Below the pieces are notes generated by a model. The model did no database searches. It saw only the letters and a program-made list of their open reading frames with translations, and had not been told where the DNA came from. From a virus (taxonomy: Duplodnaviria; Heunggongvirae; Uroviricota; Caudoviricetes), in the IMG/VR virus record IMGVR_UViG_2875713109_000001: a DNA stretch of 64,000 nucleotides, one strand, 5' to 3'. Shown here one piece after another: positions 3,880 through 50,987 of the stretch. Position 1 is the stretch's first letter. Every line of letters begins with the position of its first letter. The position numbers and the translations under genes are program-made.

Positions 3880-4066
3880 GTATTTTTAAGTCGCGAATGC
3901 TATCTTTTCGCATCATATTGACCTTTTAATCGTTCAGGCTTATAGTTTCGCCGTCGTAGCAAATTCTGCGACCAGGTTTGACAGCCTGAATGATTGTGCG
4001 GACAACCGCAGATTTCCGATATTGCGGTATTTTTGTGTCCGTTAAACCGCGTTACGCCCAAATTAT

Positions 4067-4143
4067 GGTGGGGCGTGATGGGGAGGCTTCGGCCTGCTGG
4101 TTTCACAATCGCCAGTCTGTCAACCCTGTCACGTCCTGCCACC
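4067..4143 (+). ncRNA. c4: c4-like antisense regulatory RNA (about 77 nt)
   Basis: Structured segment closed by ggtgg/ccacc with UUCG hairpin; internal cacaatc and caacc are complementary to gattgtg and ggttg found both upstream (3972-3999) and at the icd RBS (4146-4183), the a/b target layout expected for c4. Confidence 0.45.
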
Positions 4144-4193
4144 TGTTTGACAGCGGGTAGCAGGTTGTTAAACCTGATTGTGAGGCCGTAACT

Positions 4194-21965: not shown

Positions 21966-24226
21966 AAGAGCTGTGCTATGGATCTGTTTGCAGTGGAATT
22001 GAAGCCGCGAGTATTGCCTGGGAACCGTTGGGTATGCGTCCGGCGTGGTTTGCTGAAATCGAGCCTTTTCCATCTGCCGTTCTTGCGCACCGCTGGCCCC
22101 ATGTCGCCAACCTTGGCGACATGACAAAACTTGCCAAAAAAGTCCTGGCTGGGGAAATCGAATCCCCTGATGTGCTCGTCGGGGGAACACCTTGTCAGGC
22201 ATTCAGTATCGCTGGATTACGTGGTGGGCTTGATGATGAGCGTGGCGCGCTAACTTTAAAGTATGTGGAGCTTGCAAATGCAATTGACGACAAACGGGCT
22301 GAGTCATTTCTCAAACCAGCCGTTATCGTCTGGGAAAATGTCCCAGGAGTCTTGTCATCGGCAGATAACGCCTTCGGATGTTTCCTTGCCGGATTGGCTG
22401 GAGAAGATGCGCCATTTGAACCAGGTGATCGACCTGAATCAGGAAAAAGTAACGCGTTCTGGCGGTGGGATGGCAAAACCGGTTGCCATGCTCCAAAGTG
22501 GCCGCAGTGTGGTTGTATTTATGGACCGCAGCGAAAGGTGGCCTGGAGAATCCTTGATGCCCAATACTTCGGAGTGGCACAACGACGCCGACGCGTGTTT
22601 GTTGTCGCAAGTGCTCGAACAGACCTCGATCCCGCAACGGTACTTTTTGAGTTCGAAGGCGTGCGCCGGGATATTGCGCCGAGCCGAAAAAAGAAGGAAA
22701 TCGCTTCCGCCATTATTGCAAATGGCGCTGCAATCAGTGGCGAAAGCCTAAATCCATGCCTACATGCTGACATGCCACCCGGTATGAAATCGACGAAAGC
22801 CGTAAACGCTTTCAGGATGGCAGCATTTGGGGAATATATTGACGATGAAACCGCATCGACAGTAAAGGCAAGAGATTTTAAAGATGCCACTGACCTTGCC
22901 GTTTTTAGCAGCACAGGAGCAGCTTTTTGGTCAGAAGGGCATGGTACATTGCGGGCACGTGAGCAAGAAAGCCATGAGCATCTTGTTACATTGGCTTTTC
23001 CTGAGCGTATGAGCGGTACACAACATGCTGCAACTAAGAATACTTCACCATCTCTAATGGCTAAAAATCCAACAGCTGTTTGCTATGAAGTAAGAAACGC
23101 AGAAGTAGCTGTCCGCCGTCTTACCCCTGTCGAATGTGAAAGGCTGCAAGGTTTTCCTGATGGGCATACGTTGATCCCGACGGAAAAGCGTAAAAAAGTT
23201 AGTTCAGATGAACTGGCATATCTTCGCAATCACTATCCAGATTTAAGCGAAGAAGAGGCCGTGATGCTTGCAGCTGACGGACCGCGTTACAAAGCGATCG
23301 GCAATAGTATGGCAATACCAGTAATGCGCTGGATTGGCGATCGGATTACTAAGGCCGTATGTCGGCAGAAAGAAGGAAGTGAAACAAAAGAGCGAAAAGT
23401 TAAACCAGCGGCAGAATTCGAACGGTCCATATTCAAATGGGCTGGTGGAAAATTTGGTGTTCTGGAACAAATCTTTCGCTATTTGCCAGAAGGGAAGCGC
23501 CTGATTGAACCTTTCGTTGGTGGCGGAGCTGTCTTCATGAATGCCGGATACCAGGAAAATCTGCTAAATGATGTGAATGCTGACCTGATTAACTTTTACA
23601 AGACTCTGCAACGCGAGGCGCATTCACTTATCACTCTGGCACATCGTTTTTTCCTGGACTACAACACCCAGGAGGGATACTTGGCAGTACGGAATGCGTT
23701 TAACAAACAAGTCTATGATGATTTACATCGCGCAGCGGCGTTTTTGTTCCTGAACCGACATTGTTTTAACGGATTGACGCGTTACAACCAGGCCGGTGAG
23801 TTCAATGTCGGTTATGGGAAGTATAAAACTCCGTATTTCCCATTACAGGAGATGGAAGCCTTCCTCGGTGCGGAAGGGCGGTCTGAGTTTGTATGCGGTG
23901 ATTTTGCAGCGGTGATTGAAGCTGCCGGAGAAGGAGATGTCATCTTTTGCGATCCGCCGTATGAACCGCTCCCCAATACAGAGGGGTTCACGAACTATTC
24001 CGGTCATGACTTTAAGTTTGAAGAGCAAAAACGCCTGGTGTCTCTGTTGACGGATGCTCATCGTCGAGGTGCAAAGGTTCTCATTACTAACAGTGGCGCG
24101 CCAAACATCAGAGAGCTTTATCATGACAGTGGCTTCAGAGTGGAACCTCTTTTTGCCAGACGTTCTGTGTCTTGTAAGGGGGACACTCGAGGTGTAGCTC
24201 ATGACGTTTTGGGTATATTGCTCTAA
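21962..24226 (+). CDS. dmt: bifunctional DNA methyltransferase Dmt (N-terminal C5-cytosine MTase-like, C-terminal Dam-like N6-adenine MTase)
   Basis: 754 aa; [12 protein letters not shown] and ENVPG (C5 motifs IV and VI); C-terminal [13 protein letters not shown]..., DPPY (IFCDPPYEP). Confidence 0.85.
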
Positions 24227-24233
24227 TAAATTA
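24217..24233 (+). promoter_or_regulatory. C1 operator-like site at start of tRNA-ban operon leader
   Basis: attgctctaataaatta overlapping dmt stop; TAATAT -10-like hexamer 10 bp downstream. Confidence 0.6.
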
Positions 24234-24407
24234 ATTAGTGTAATATCGCCTCAATGAATCGTGATTTATAGAGCGATTTAGCTGTTAGCCGCGACAGGCG
24301 CGGCGGTAAGCATGGCTGGGCCTAGTCCTCCCAGACAAACCACCGAGTTGCCAGGTTGACCATGCGCCTAAGTGGCAACGCCGAAGTGCGTTACGAGCTT
24401 CCAGTTT

Positions 24408-24433
24408 GCCCATCTTCGGGTGGGCGTTTTTTT
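24408..24433 (+). terminator. intrinsic terminator or attenuator in operon leader
   Basis: gcccatc-ttcg-ggtgggc (UUCG tetraloop) followed by GTTTTTTT. Confidence 0.5.
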
Positions 24434-24899
24434 CAGGGTTTTCGTCATGGTTAGCGACTTTGCGGCGGTTTAGAAACTGACCATTAAAGTAAATGCAAAC
24501 GATGATCTGATGATGGTAGCGGCCTAAGAAACCAGATGCCACGGGGTATGAGTCGTCCCCCGTCAAAAAAATCGACCGCAGAGTGTCCCCGTCTGTGTAT
24601 TAGGGAACGGGGAGGCACAACAGGTAAGGGCGCTGGTGTGATTAACCAGATGAACGAGAAGGGGCCATCTGTTGGTCAGCGTCCTTTCCTGTTGCGTTTT
24701 CTTTTCAGCGTAACAGCGGTGCTTAACAGCACTTTGGGTACAGTTCCACGAATTTACGGGTATATCCCGTCATGCTGAAGGCGCTAATCACGCTGGAAGC
24801 CAGGGTTGTGCATCCCCTGTTACCGAATTGCAGCCAGGGCGCGGTGCGCCGAAAAGCATACGGAGGTGGAAGCCCTCGCCGGAGACGTACCCGGCAAGT

Positions 24900-24975
24900 G
24901 ATGGTGTAGCTCAGCGGTTAGAGCGGTTGACTGTTAATCAACGGGTCGATGGTTCAAATCCATCCACCATCGCCA
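24900..24975 (+). tRNA. tRNA-Asn (anticodon GUU)
   Basis: Cloverleaf folded by hand: acceptor gatggtg/caccatc, anticodon stem gttga/tcaac with loop ctGTTaa, T-arm gatgg-ttcaaat-ccatc, 3' CCA encoded. Confidence 0.85.
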
Positions 24976-24977
24976 AT

Positions 24978-25053
24978 GCCGGTTTAGCTCAGTTGGTAGA
25001 GCGCCTGCCTTGTAAGCAGGATGTCAGCGGTTCGAGTCCGTTAATCGGCACCA
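24978..25053 (+). tRNA. tRNA-Thr (anticodon UGU)
   Basis: Acceptor gccggtt/aatcggc, D-arm gctcagttggtagagc, anticodon stem cctgc/gcagg loop ctTGTaa, T-loop ttcgagt, CCA encoded. Confidence 0.85.
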
Positions 25054-25785
25054 GCACAACAGGTAAGGGTATTTTGCGACGCCGGAGATCGCCGAGCTTG
25101 GCAGAGGGTTCGAATCCCTACGAAGTACCCTTACCGTTGTGATGAAGTGCAGCTCTTTGAAGCAACCAGAAGATAAGCATCTGGCTTCACAACATAAACC
25201 GCAGGAACGACCAATAAACGGTAGTCCGTATGGAGAACACCCCGTTGAGGAAGAGGCCTGGCCGGAACCGTAACCGGCACTACAACGTTGAGAACACTGG
25301 CGTAACGGGGTCATATCCCAATCTACGAATAAATGTTGCGTTGCAGCGTGACAACCAGTGTTCTCAACATTGTGGTGAATGCACAGGCTGATGTGCCGCA
25401 ACTACAGTAGTGCGCGCTTTGCGGGGCTTGCTACAACCCTGTGTCGGAGTTCAGCACCGACCATCACAGTTTGATTCTCTGGCATGAGCATAACGCTGAA
25501 ATAAGTCCAGTCTGGTGCGGCCCGATCACCCGCCGTTAGCTCCACGAAACGGAGCACGTAACAGGTAAGAGCATTCTCCTGTAACGGGTTCATATCCCAA
25601 TCTACAGGTCCACCAAGAATGCTCTTTCCGTTGCGGTGAATGCGGCTAAGCGCACGCGGGGAAATGGTTATATCAGTCCATTCATTTCTCCTTGTTTCCC
25701 CGTCCACGGTGGATAACCAGCCAAAGGACACCGGGAGGCACCCGGCACCGCAGCTTTTTTATTCGTTAAATAATGGAGTGAGAGG

Positions 25786-26022
25786 ATGCAGAACAATCCG
25801 AACAAATGTCGAACGCTATGGGTGCGGTTATATATTTATGCCGTCCTCTGTTTGATTGTGTCACTGGTTCTGTATGTTTGGCTTTTGCCAAATATGATCT
25901 CATCTAACAGCACAATACTTGTATTGTTGGGAGTCCTTCTCGCGCTCATTTACCCGGCTTTCGCAGTAGTCTTTTTTCGTGAAAAAACCAGGAAATTAAT
26001 TAATGAAAAAAACGTTGATTAG
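25786..26022 (+). CDS. small membrane protein (78 aa)
   Basis: Two hydrophobic segments; overlaps start of downstream lipoprotein gene. Confidence 0.45.
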   Translation: MQNNPNKCRTLWVRLYIYAVLCLIVSLVLYVWLLPNMISSNSTILVLLGVLLALIYPAFAVVFFREKTRKLINEKNVD

Positions 26023-26830
26023 TGCAGCGATTATTTTGGGTTCTTTATGTCTGACCGGATGCGATCGGGTAGAGCCAGGTAACGTAGGGATCAAAGTAAA
26101 TAAGCTGGGGGATGATAAAGGTATCGGTGAAGTAGTTGGCGTTGGTCGCTACTGGACAGGCTTGAATACTGAAGTTTATATCTTCCCGACCTTTAAGCAA
26201 ATGAAGACATACGATGAGCCGTTCAGCTTCCAGATGAGCGACGGAACAACCATTGGTTACCACATCGGCGTAGCCTACAAGGTTGATCCAGCAAAAGTCA
26301 CAACGGTATTTCAGACCTATCGCAAAGGTGTAGATGATATTACTGATACCGATCTACGCCAGAAGGTTGCAGATGCTCTGAACCGGTTAGCCAGCAAAAT
26401 GACCACCGACAAATTTATCGACGGTGGCAAATCTGAATTGCTTGATGCAGCCCTTAAAGACATTCAGGAAGAAATGACGCCAATCGGCATTCAGGTGATG
26501 AGCCTCTCTTATGTAGGTAAGCCAGAATACCCGCCAACAGTTATTGACAGTATTAACGCCAAAGTCACGGCAAACCAAAAAACCCTGCAACGCGAGCAAG
26601 AGGTCAAACAACGTGAAGCAGAGGCCAACATGCTGCGCGCGGAAGCTGCCGGACAGGCTGATGCTATTCGCACAAAAGCCCAGGCCGAAGCTGATGCCAT
26701 TCGTTTACGTGGTGAAGCTCTGCGCCAGAACCCCGGTGTTATGGAGTTGGAAGCGATCAACAAATGGAACGGTACATTACCGCAGTATATGACCAGTAAT
26801 ACCGCTGTTCCGTTTGTTCCGGTGAAATAA
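26003..26830 (+). CDS. lipoprotein with SPFH/band-7-like domain and coiled-coil C-terminus
   Basis: Signal plus lipobox LTGC; central domain then EAEANMLRAEAAGQADAIRTKAQAEADAIR helical repeats typical of SPFH family. Confidence 0.5.
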   Translation: MKKTLISAAIILGSLCLTGCDRVEPGNVGIKVNKLGDDKGIGEVVGVGRYWTGLNTEVYIFPTFKQMKTYDEPFSFQMSDGTTIGYHIGVAYKVDPAKVTTVFQTYRKGVDDITDTDLRQKVADALNRLASKMTTDKFIDGGKSELLDAALKDIQEEMTPIGIQVMSLSYVGKPEYPPTVIDSINAKVTANQKTLQREQEVKQREAEANMLRAEAAGQADAIRTKAQAEADAIRLRGEALRQNPGVMELEAINKWNGTLPQYMTSNTAVPFVPVK

Positions 26831-26857: not shown

Positions 26858-26933
26858 GGCCCTTTAGCTCAGTGGTTAGAGCTGGCGACTCATAATCGCA
26901 CGGTCACCGGTTCAAGTCCGGTAGGGGCCACCA
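26858..26933 (+). tRNA. tRNA with CAU anticodon, Ile2 (ileX)-type
   Basis: Near-identical over most positions to recalled E. coli tRNA-Ile2; acceptor ggccctt/aggggcc, anticodon loop ctCATaa, CCA encoded. Confidence 0.8.
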
Positions 26934-27219
26934 TATTTGGTTGTAACACGGCGTCTGGCACATGCGTCGTTAGCGGTCTGGTGACGTTAAAAGGGGGGAA
27001 CCTTGCCCCTAGCTCAGGCAACGAACCAGGTAGCCGGAATGTGCAAGCCACCGTTTGTTGTTTCTCGGGTAAAGGGATTCACCATCCTGGCGATTCGGTG
27101 TGACAGCCGGGAAGAGTCCGGCGCATTAATCCTGATTTTCTGGTGATGACTCATATCGTTAGGAGTGATTTGAGTATGCCGATTATATCTGACATTCAGC
27201 ACGCCTGGGTGGAGTGCTA

Positions 27220-44774: not shown

Positions 44775-44858
44775 GAAAAAATCGCATTACTGGTGGCAAA
44801 GCCATAACTACTGATACAATATTTCTAGGTTAAAGATCTGGCATTAGGTAGAGATAGC

Positions 44859-45323
44859 ATGTTTCTTCATATCAATCCCGATTGGGCATCAGCTATTGCG
44901 GCATTTGGGTCAGCAATAGCTGCTTTTATTAGTTTGCGCACAAGTAAAAATCTTGGATTATTCGATAAGGAAAAATTTTATAGTGAAGCATTGATAAACT
45001 TTGCTGATAGGGCAAATAAAATAGCAACAGGAAAAGCTGGATCAGACTGGGATGTTAATGACGCAAGTAATATAATTCTTTCACTAAATGCCGCAAAAGA
45101 AACTATTGAAAGTGCGCCAAAACCTATTCGAGAGAAACTAAAACAATATTACAAACATAATCTTTGCCATGAGATCATAACTGAATTAGAGGCTCACTCT
45201 CCCCCAGATTCAGTAATTGTAAGAGAACCATCAGAGTATGAAGGCAAGATCATGGGATTGTGGGATGAGATTAAAATATTTCTGGGTTATACAGTGGTAT
45301 CAGAAGCAGACCTTGAAGATTAA
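44859..45323 (+). CDS. membrane-anchored protein (154 aa), AT-rich gene
   Basis: N-terminal hydrophobic segment WASAIAAFGSAIAAFISL; low GC relative to neighbours. Confidence 0.4.
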   Translation: MFLHINPDWASAIAAFGSAIAAFISLRTSKNLGLFDKEKFYSEALINFADRANKIATGKAGSDWDVNDASNIILSLNAAKETIESAPKPIREKLKQYYKHNLCHEIITELEAHSPPDSVIVREPSEYEGKIMGLWDEIKIFLGYTVVSEADLED

Positions 45324-50648: not shown

Positions 50649-50851
50649 TGTTTTTTGACTGCCGATGTTACATTGAACCTGACCTCTTGCGCCTTGAGGC
50701 ATTTTCGGTTTATGCTTATCAGGCACCTCATTAAAACGGGTGCCGGGATTGGAACCCCGGATAATGCAAAAGGCGACACAGACGCCAAAAGCGTCTTTTT
50801 TTGTGTCATGCCATCGCACAGCCATACGTAGCACATAGCTCCGAGATCAAT

Positions 50852-50926
50852 GGTAGTGCTGGCTGGGCTGCCGAAAGGCAGGCCGGTTCCCTTTTGCGCC
50901 GGTAGTTCCAACCCAGTCAGTGCTAC
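50852..50926 (+). ncRNA. second c4-like structured RNA (tentative)
   Basis: About 75 nt closed by ggtag/ctacc with GAAA-loop hairpin ctgcc-gaaa-ggcag; same position relative to the icd-like gene as 4067-4143. Confidence 0.3.
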
Positions 50927-50987
50927 CGCCATTGAGATTGGAACCTCACGCGGTAGCTCCTTAAGTTAGCAAAAGGAGGCTGCCATT

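Follow-up and report, generated by a model that had tools for sequence, protein, structure and literature searches.

A conserved family of structured RNA modules in the ban-operon leader of phage P1 and in other leaders of Enterobacterales phages

Layout of the ban leader and the hairpin module A

The window, i.e., the whole stretch of DNA analysed here, comprises 64,000 nucleotides (nt) of a virus of the Caudoviricetes (IMG/VR record IMGVR_UViG_2875713109_000001), identified as phage P1: its positions 24228-25790 match phage P1 records at 99.8% identity. Our subject is a series of repeated structured modules within the leader of its ban operon, a leader of approximately 3 kb in an operon repressed by C1. 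The modules are of two kinds: A, a long imperfect hairpin present in four copies, and B, a multibranched domain that follows three of them. We regard it as established how A and B fold, on which strand they lie and that the four window copies belong to the family.

In the P1 record AF234172, this part of the genome runs dmt, Pban/Oban, a dicF-like region, tRNA-Asn, tRNA-Thr, approximately 730 nt, tciABC, trnI and ban, and the opposite strand of those 730 nt is where the record places the genes plp and upl. The window features that follow are all on the plus strand. The promoters P1ban and P2ban and the C1 operator Oban (Op72) are placed at 24201..24246 by transferring the AF234172 annotation through a 99% identical alignment (L001 1474-1519). 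The dicF-like region (24341..24442), a misc_feature of the P1 record, is closed by a terminator-like hairpin at 24407-24433, located by a terminator scan, and gives no match to the Rfam DicF model even at E <= 10. This terminator precedes the tRNAs and ban, so the operon transcript must read through it. Two tRNA genes found by ARAGORN come next, tRNA-Asn(GTT) at 24900-24975 and tRNA-Thr(TGT) at 24978-25053, with Rfam tRNA scores of 74.5 and 72.9 bits, respectively. On the far side of the modules, the list of open reading frames (ORFs) gives a 78-amino-acid (aa) predicted membrane protein (25786-26022) and a 275-aa SPFH/Band_7 lipoprotein (26003-26830; Pfam Band_7 E = 9.7e-31). These two, the first coding genes that the operon has in this variant, stand in place of the tciABC of reference P1, as judged by comparison with AF234172 and MH160767, the latter of which names the Band_7 protein a 'putative serine protease'. 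A tRNA with a CAT anticodon, the trnI (tRNA-Ile2) of P1, lies at 26858..26933 (ARAGORN and P1 annotation), and ban begins 3' of it at 27214 (ORF list). The Pban transcript carries the downstream leader elements: the dicF-like region, the tRNAs, the modules, the first genes and trnI.

Module A is an imperfect hairpin of 19-21 bp with conserved arms, CACAAC-AGGUAAGAGCAUUG ... CAGUGCUCUUUCC-GUUGUG, and an apical interior that varies between phages; its consensus is gCACAAC-A-GGUAAGAGCAUUG (interior) CAGUGCUCUUUCC-GUUGUG. Interior length ranges over 6-169 nt (median 47) in 105 distinct units, and at least 58 unrelated sequence classes can be distinguished. In phage D6, a hairpin 3' of trnI (L004 3932-3993; approximately 46 bits) is reduced to 62 nt and has next to no interior, so that the arms can evidently occur without a payload; further minimal hairpins were seen at L049 3578-3639 and L083 5727-5788.

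A covariance model of A, named R1, finds exactly four copies in the 64 kb, all on the plus strand and scoring 28-61 bits, figures to be read with the knowledge that the A set was collected by a pattern fixing part of the 3' arm, that P1 sequences are in the model and that its E-values are rough. The most divergent copy is A1 (24616..24696; 28.0 bits, E = 8.5e-5, at 24609-24703; fold z -3.8), which has no typical B domain after it. A2 (25055..25141; 53.2 bits at 25048-25148; fold -42.4 kcal/mol, z -5.0) begins 2 nt 3' of the CCA of tRNA-Thr. The interior of A3 (25280..25375; 48.8 bits at 25274-25381; -49.6 kcal/mol, z -4.9) contains GUAACGGGGUCAUAUCCCAAUCUAC and a second small hairpin, and that of A4 (25557..25635; 60.8 bits at 25550-25642; z -4.4) contains GUAACGGGUUCAUAUCCCAAUCUAC inside a CCUGU/ACAGG stem. 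A3 and A4 have a payload in common, the hairpin GGG-UCAUAU-CCC, which is not a canonical T-loop (GGG-(K)UCAUAU-CCC). Across the four units, fold z-scores range from -3.8 to -5.0, and none of 200 shuffles was as stable. Rfam, searched in both gathering and E-value modes, offers no family for A, whether in the window, in lambda or at 16 other loci, and the microRNA matches that A attracts (mir-142, mir-5985, mir-465) merely reflect a long hairpin. The arm sequences were not found in the searchable literature.

Much of this repetition had been noticed in a preliminary description made without database searches. It reported a motif in three copies, starting at 24618, 25060 and 25558; what occurs three times is the 10-mer AACAGGTAAG (24619, 25058, 25560; 0.08 copies in shuffles of the 64-kb window, with none of 100 shuffles reaching three), whereas the full 12-mer ACAACAGGTAAG starts at 24617 and 25056 only, the third copy being GTAACAGGTAAG from 25558, and the reported starts were off by 1-4 nt. 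Its inverted repeats proved real and are the arms described above: 25278-25300 pairs with 25355-25377 in A3 (23 nt, 91% complementary), 25564-25577 with 25616-25629 in A4 (14 nt, 93%) and, in the stem that it had drawn around a T-arm, 25062-25074 with 25123-25135 in A2 (13 nt, 92%). The interior that two units were said to share is the 16-mer TCATATCCCAATCTAC, present in exactly two copies (25311 and 25590; 0.00 in shuffles), and the T-arm-like element is GAGGG-TTCGAAT-CCCTA at 25103-25119, which lies 3 nt 5' of the 3' arm.

The units had been taken to be structured, and when covariation-supported structure was looked for, compensatory changes were found in both A and B. In the arms of 62 distinct A units, 93.8% of cells are standard pairs, both sides change in 10 of the 19 pairs, and compensatory cells number 71 compared with 26 ± 4 in shuffles, none of 500 of which reached 71. 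Pairing falls to 33-67% when the 3' partners are slid by 1-3 columns. G·U pairs outnumber A·C pairs by 103 to 15, an excess that is consistent with an RNA of the operon (plus) strand but not with a palindrome acting as DNA or with an RNA made from the minus strand. Consistent with this, the nearest ORFs of at least 150 aa on both sides run in the same direction as A at 57 loci and in the opposite direction at 6.

These data also bear on whether protein genes account for the conservation. In AF234172, the minus strand over 25024-25593 bears annotations for plp (125 aa) and upl (63 aa), and ORFs of 125 and 109 aa are present in the window; as annotated in AF234172 and NC_005856, the pair (25024-25731, minus strand) overlaps the tRNA-Thr gene and the A/B modules. 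The preliminary description's remark that no ORF explains the conservation must be qualified by these genes, annotated exactly here. Both are, however, broken in close relatives: relatives of 85-90% identity have in-frame stops, frame breaks and indels in both ORFs. In addition, plp has a TTG start and overlaps the tRNA-Thr gene, substitutions track base-pairing rather than codons, and neither gene is annotated in P7, D6 or Ro157c2YLVW. Because plp and upl are broken in relatives, coding does not explain the conservation and the annotations are probably artefacts; we give the protein-gene explanation almost no credence.

Module B and its relation to STnc100

A second domain, B, lies 3' of A2, A3 and A4. 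It is multibranched and cloverleaf-like with a 9-bp closing helix, and it is laid out as GUUGUGGUG, AAU, hairpin P1, a variable centre, hairpin P3 and CACCACAAC. Its centres form 50 classes among 86 distinct domains, and 94 of 121 distinct tails downstream of A contain a perfect 9-bp partner adjoining a CCGG hairpin. Minimum free energy (MFE) folds close 84 of the 86 distinct domains and give 65 of them three or four branches. In the type that we call B-I, double changes occur in all three helices (21 cells, compared with 5 ± 2 in shuffles; 0/500 shuffles reach this).

The three window copies, all on the plus strand, belong to different types. B2 (25136..25193) is short and of type B-III, GUUGUGAUG...CCAGA-AGAUAAGCA-UCUGG...CACAAC, and the same domain is found with compensatory closing helices in SPN9CC and Sashavirus. 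In the Salmonella phage SPN9CC (L005 1990-2060), the B-III domain reads GAUGCGAUG...CCAGAAGAUAAGCAUCUGG...CAUCGCAUC, has no A hairpin and stands immediately 5' of an N-like antiterminator gene, where a nutL site would be expected. B3 (25369..25470) is of type B-I, AUUGUGGUG-AAU-GCACA GGCUGA UGUGC ... GUCGG AGUUCAGCA CCGAC-CAUCACAGU, and is supported by its closing helix, an MFE fold that is a closed multibranch, and the B-I covariation. B4 (25630..25760), of type B-II and related to STnc100 by match and by fold, is closed by GUUGCGGUG (25630-25638) pairing with CACCGCAGC (25746-25754), with a run of six U directly 3' of the helix (25755-25760).

Between the units lie two conserved spacers, also on the plus strand. 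The first (25194..25279) ends in a CCGG-AACCGUAA-CCGG hairpin followed by CAC and is 87% identical over 107 nt to Citrobacter phage phiNP. The second (25471..25556) ends in a GCUCC-ACGAAAC-GGAGC hairpin and is approximately 83% identical to unannotated stretches of Klebsiella and Cronobacter phages; in ENT47670, its match stands between the Q gene and the holin gene. Both spacers end in a small hairpin plus (G)CAC, which resembles the P3 hairpin and CACCACAAC at the 3' end of B.

The two modules have sequence in common, since the closing helix of B begins with the GUUGUG at the 3' end of A. Formation of the lower 6 bp of A therefore excludes the B closing helix, and vice versa. Covariation extends to all three strands, which in A4/B4, for example, are CGUAAC, GUUGCG and CACCGCAGC. 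The lambda closing helix is formed by GUUGUGCUG and CAGCACAAC. By energy minimisation, A is fully formed in units 2 and 3 and the B closing helix wins in unit 4 and lambda. The most economical reading is sequential formation, with A forming first and B once A has been cut or opened.

One CACAAC copy is unpaired in either fold, and the 5' arm of A carries CACAACA, the consensus target of the R1 seed of the small RNA GcvB (PMC4104026). A further likeness lies in the 3' arm of A2, where CUUACCGUUGUGAUG matches GcvB CUUACGGUUGUGAUG at 14 of 15 positions (the match is between CTTACCGTTGTGATG at 25130-25144 and CTTACGGTTGTGATG in E. coli gcvB, L132 253-267). The modules might on these grounds be a GcvB sponge or mimic like the prophage anti-small-RNA AgvB. 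However, the best duplex energy predicted across the region is -26 kcal/mol against a shuffled mean of -30, i.e., no better than shuffles. Many members of the family instead have CAUAAC, CGCAAC or UGCAAC, or else GAUGAG arms whose match to GcvB does not exceed 6 nt. As Rfam AgvB also gives no match and the likeness was noticed after the fact, we consider this role highly improbable.

The clearest known relative of B is STnc100, a prophage small RNA that has been recovered with Hfq and detected experimentally (PMC12370729; bioRxiv 10.64898/2026.05.13.724894) and is reported to be structurally related to PasD, another Hfq-associated small RNA (2026 preprint, bioRxiv 10.64898/2026.05.13.724894). 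B4 matches Rfam STnc100 (RF02076) at 37.8 bits (E = 2.8e-6) over 25632-25752, model positions 31-147, and has the core features of that family: GGUGAAU, the hairpin, the exact 21-nt 3' motif CACCGGGAGGCACCCGGCACC and the MFE closing helix. Like STnc100 and PasD, it has a variable centre and an internal multibranch fold that is shut by a closing helix, and those RNAs are found in the late leader of lambdoid phages. For example, the canonical STnc100 of Stx phage 933W (207.7 bits) is the same domain as B4 plus a terminator, situated 75 nt 3' of stx2B and convergent with AsxR. B4 differs in that the 5'-most 30 nt of STnc100 are absent, as is its separate terminator hairpin (model positions 148-206); in place of the latter, B4 has just the U run directly after its closing helix. 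Canonical STnc100, for its part, closes with GCAUGGUG/CACCAUGC and has no A hairpin 5' of it. We assign B4 to a wider family with STnc100 and PasD, and B is a new, divergent branch of the STnc100 family. The Rfam STnc100 model gave no match to the B-I, B-III or lambda-type domains.

Distribution in phages and prophages

Pieces of 25124-25663 recur, at 80-95% identity and unannotated, in unrelated temperate phages, including P22-like phages, Sashavirus, Citrobacter phiNP, and Cronobacter and Klebsiella phages. A search with a pattern of the 3' arm found at least 120 IMG/VR contigs. In a species-level genome collection, the pattern gave 99 matches; R1 was run on 80 of these loci and confirmed 24, nearly all in Enterobacterales, and the unconfirmed matches are consistent with a rough estimate of approximately 70 chance matches. 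One variant alone has a match in 726 of 5,426 complete E. coli genomes. E. coli genomes with any copy have a median of one, and the copies are always in prophage leaders, never scattered. Among the matches listed, those derived from K-12 cover only the lambda-like part of the query. We take it as established that the family is confined to phages and prophages of Enterobacterales (to which nearly all of the confirmed genome loci belong) and that its members lie within tRNA arrays and in the leader regions of phage operons that are strong and regulated.

The sites in question are the leaders of PR', PL and Pban, or positions within tRNA clusters. A Pfam scan of 42 upstream ORFs of at least 120 aa identified cI-like repressors (Peptidase_S24) in 10, Q antiterminators of three Pfam families in 5, 5 and 2, and a D12 methylase of the P1 dmt type in 5. 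Genes 3' of the modules are often holins, and in annotated E. coli prophages the order is Q, element, holin. Immediately 5' of A, 101 distinct contexts comprise a small hairpin ending within 6 nt (62), a terminator-like T-run (19), a tRNA 3' end within 12 nt (12) and others (8). The leader is an insertion site for accessory genes. ORFs just 3' of the IMG/VR modules include one Tad2-like protein (Thoeris anti-defence), three RdgC and two of the gp49/gene 66 family.

Lambda itself has one unit, with A at 44788-44863 and B extending to approximately 44943 (L131 989-1145), directly 3' of the 6S terminator tR'. A second terminator-like hairpin (L131 1233-1275) lies between the module and gene S. 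The lambda reference record has nothing annotated at 44788-44943.

Such positions raise the question of transcription signals, i.e., nut-like or put-like antitermination or anti-Rho RNA elements. The modules stand just 3' of regulated promoters (PR' after tR', PL after cI, and Pban), the B-III domain of SPN9CC is directly 5' of an N-like gene, and the small hairpin 5' of A often has a purine-rich loop (GCCTG-GAAAGA-CAGGC). The consensus 3' arm, CAGTGCTCTTTCC, is also close to the boxA region of rrn operons (CACTGCTCTTTAAC). But the boxA-like TGCTCTTT of A4 and the family consensus is base-paired in a 20-bp helix, and its letters are not kept in A1-A3, which read TCCTTTCC, TACCCTTAC and TGTTCTCAA. 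The lambda element comes after tR', where Q-modified polymerase already reads through, and P1 is not known to have an N or Q antitermination protein. Tandem copies, and copies in the tRNA cluster of a virulent phage, are likewise unfit for a signal needed once per operon. We therefore think a transcription element very unlikely. A lambda-type nut site in the strict sense (single-stranded boxA YGCTCTTTA, boxB and an N protein) was rejected on the same grounds: the boxA-like letters are paired in A4 and absent from A1-A3.

The distribution also speaks to whether the modules act as DNA, either as recombination linkers between mosaic phages or as a mobile palindrome resembling a miniature inverted-repeat transposable element (MITE) or attC. 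Conserved arms around unrelated interiors would suit this, as would one payload in different frames in different phages and a leader that is a mosaic of pieces common to unrelated phages. What counts against it is that the 103:15 ratio of G·U to A·C and the compensatory changes point to selection on a one-strand RNA, that orientation follows transcription (57 vs 6 loci), and that copy-bearing E. coli genomes have a median of one copy, found only in prophage leaders. The chance that the modules are DNA elements is accordingly slim in our judgement, although payloads may be exchanged by recombination at the arms, which is compatible with a role of the modules in framing and processing RNA. Of the specific candidates, integron attC was discarded because GTTGTGG/GTTGCGG break the RRR of the core GTTRRRY and no integrase was seen nearby, and a MITE or repetitive extragenic palindromic (REP) repeat because copy-bearing E. 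coli genomes have a median of one copy, in prophage leaders.

Likeness to tRNA and a possible role in the leader transcript

The link between the modules and tRNAs is real, although the modules are not tRNA genes. A canonical T-arm occurs in 16 of 93 distinct A interiors, compared with 0.05 in shuffles, and usually lies 0-5 nt 5' of the 3' arm; in the window, a search for a T-arm (5-bp stem, G-TTCRANN-C loop) finds the one in the interior of A2 (25103-25119). D6 and P7 have an extra tRNA-Ser(UGA) with an A hairpin directly 3' of it. The core of the lambda B payload has an 87% identity match in virulent rV5-like phages, inside a tRNA cluster, where it comes right after an unannotated tRNA-Ser(UGA) and is closed by a different helix. 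The same core is also the payload of the D6/P7 A hairpin, making three frames in all (lambda, D6/P7 and FV3). Since one core occurs under different closing helices in different phages, payload cores have been re-framed.

In the tRNA cluster of FV3 (NC_019517), ARAGORN reports a tRNA-Ser(tga) at L233 1695-1785 and a 99-nt tRNA-like gene with a four-base anticodon (atcc) at L233 1884-1982, both unannotated in the record, and the lambda-type B core lies between them.

As for tRNA genes in the window, ARAGORN finds only those at 24900-24975, 24978-25053 and 26858-26933, and Rfam tRNA (RF00005) has no match in 25055-25790 even at E <= 10. A YrlA/Y RNA (RF02553) was rejected: its sole match (25.6 bits, against a gathering threshold of 69) spans the two real tRNAs at 24920-25037. 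The idea, raised in the preliminary description, that the units are degenerate tRNA genes fails on the same blank searches and on the compensatory changes in the arms, which indicate a selected structure and not a decaying pseudogene. Its other idea, a processing role, we find plausible on the basis of anatomy and context.

A subtler possibility is that the modules are tRNA-derived mimics, in which A with its T-arm and B would be processed by RNase P, the CCA-adding enzyme or TruB/TrmA, or would serve as decoys for tRNA-targeting defences. In its favour, the T-arms in A are placed before the 3' arm as in tRNA. B resembles a cloverleaf in its acceptor-like helix, in a hairpin that comes 3 nt later where a D-arm would be, and in another that abuts the 3' strand like a T-arm; one B variant (L072) has a perfect GCCGG-TTCGATT-CCGGC T-arm. 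Non-tRNA substrates of RNase P, such as the C4 precursor or 4.5S RNA, have an acceptor-like helix stacked on a T-like hairpin and a 3' CCA. In B, the closing helix abuts the P3 hairpin, and CCA stands 3' of the closing helix in 14 of the 50 centre classes of the family. The precursor of P1 C4 RNA is an RNase P substrate, and modules lie beside or inside tRNA arrays. Yet the tRNA searches are blank across 25055-25790, the stems have not 7 bp but 19-21 bp in A and 9 bp in B, the usual P3 loop has 9 nt (AGAUCAGCA) and is not a T-loop, most A interiors are without a T-arm, and no CCA follows B2, B3 or B4. We rate mimicry as rather unlikely, while giving it some weight.

The reading that we favour, and to which we assign an even chance, is that the modules serve to frame and process a polycistronic, non-coding leader transcript. 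They would separate its individual RNAs: the DicF-like RNA, the two tRNAs and the B-type small RNAs. A would form first during transcription and act as a double-stranded spacer and an RNase III-type substrate. After A was cut or opened, GUUGUGGUG would re-pair with the downstream CACCACAAC and close B, and the closed B would be a compact RNA with paired ends, resistant to exonucleases. Any phage-specific activity would reside in the variable centres and payloads.

Known systems provide parallels. Processing stems are familiar from rRNA operons, from the early RNase III sites R1-R5 of T7 and from the RNase III hairpin of the lambda N leader. Like A, such stems are imperfect helices of approximately 20 bp with a conserved bulge or mismatch, occur in phage leaders, are repeated on one transcript between independently folding units, and are mutually related in sequence. 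A has the dimensions of an RNase III-type hairpin (at least 20 bp, approximately two turns), with 19 pairs and one bulge in a helix extended by interior pairing in A2-A4. The differences are that the arm sequence of A is conserved across very different phages, that its apical part is a variable payload of 24-170 nt, that its 3' arm also supplies the 5' strand of the domain that follows, and that its cleavage is a prediction. The tRNA cluster of phage T4 yields the stable RNAs species 1 and 2; by description, these too are small, structured, non-tRNA RNAs co-transcribed among phage tRNA genes, but they belong to another phage group, and the A/B modules also occur in leaders without tRNA genes. 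C4 and DicF are cut from longer operon transcripts by host RNases. They resemble the proposed products in being small RNAs of the same phage or related prophages (P1/P7 C4, RF01695, and DicF, with a dicF-like region in the ban leader itself), but show no similarity to A or B in sequence or structure, and the C4 copies lie elsewhere in the window.

Those C4 antisense RNA loci are two and separate, at 4061-4146 (68.4 bits) and 50846-50933 (76.7 bits), with a c4-a1b1 target match at 3940-3992 and an isrK match at 50723-50801. The two regions (3940-4146 and 50723-50933) look like two immunity-type antisense modules in one P1-like genome.

Several points weigh against framing and processing. We infer cleavage, the enzymes and any regulatory activity of the products from anatomy, and for processing and its enzymes the inference is a pure one. 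RNase III needs only double-stranded RNA, which leaves the near-invariance of the arms across phages of Escherichia, Klebsiella, Pantoea, Erwinia, Serratia and Rahnella without an explanation. Conservation of the arms is overstated by a collection pattern that fixes the 3' arm, and the percentage of pairing in the B closing helix is biased because that helix was located by requiring complementarity. The STnc100 score of B4 (37.8 bits) is below the gathering threshold of 47. Finally, CRISPR interference (CRISPRi) and knockout screens found that plaque formation does not require trnT, plp or upl (PMC10695390), so any role of the region is an accessory one.

Antisense targets of the payloads were sought in the window, where there was no complementarity of 13 nt or more elsewhere and the 11-12-mers were at chance level. 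The searchable literature contained nothing on ban-leader RNAs, on processing of the lambda late leader, or on transcript ends of P1 or lambda in these places, and none of the ten small RNAs reported for P22 corresponds to A or B. A preprint on the P1vir Δhfq transcriptome gives changes for trnA, trnI, ban and dbn and does not cover the module region.

A broader and more tentative proposal, which we hold to be less likely than not, is that A and B form a cassette system, in which conserved closing helices, read by the RNases of Enterobacterales hosts, frame interchangeable payloads. The arms would then be both processing signals and homology arms for swapping payloads by recombination. The PR', PL and Pban leaders and the tRNA clusters would be expression sites for many, mostly uncharacterised, phage small RNAs, in lambda and P1 too.

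What is new is A: a family with no Rfam entry, no annotation in the records checked and no mention in the literature that could be searched. Should the modules prove functional, lambda and P1, which are among the best-studied phages, would share a conserved family of structured RNAs, and STnc100 and PasD would become part of a far larger group of RNAs that are framed and differ in their centres. The plp and upl annotations would then be explained as artefacts, and there would be a testable reason for small RNAs and tRNAs collecting in the insertion-tolerant ("moron") region 3' of Q. The conserved frames would also be usable as portable scaffolds for small-RNA expression. Even if the modules are only processing spacers, they still annotate approximately 1.3 kb of P1 and hundreds of prophage leaders now labelled intergenic or hypothetical protein.

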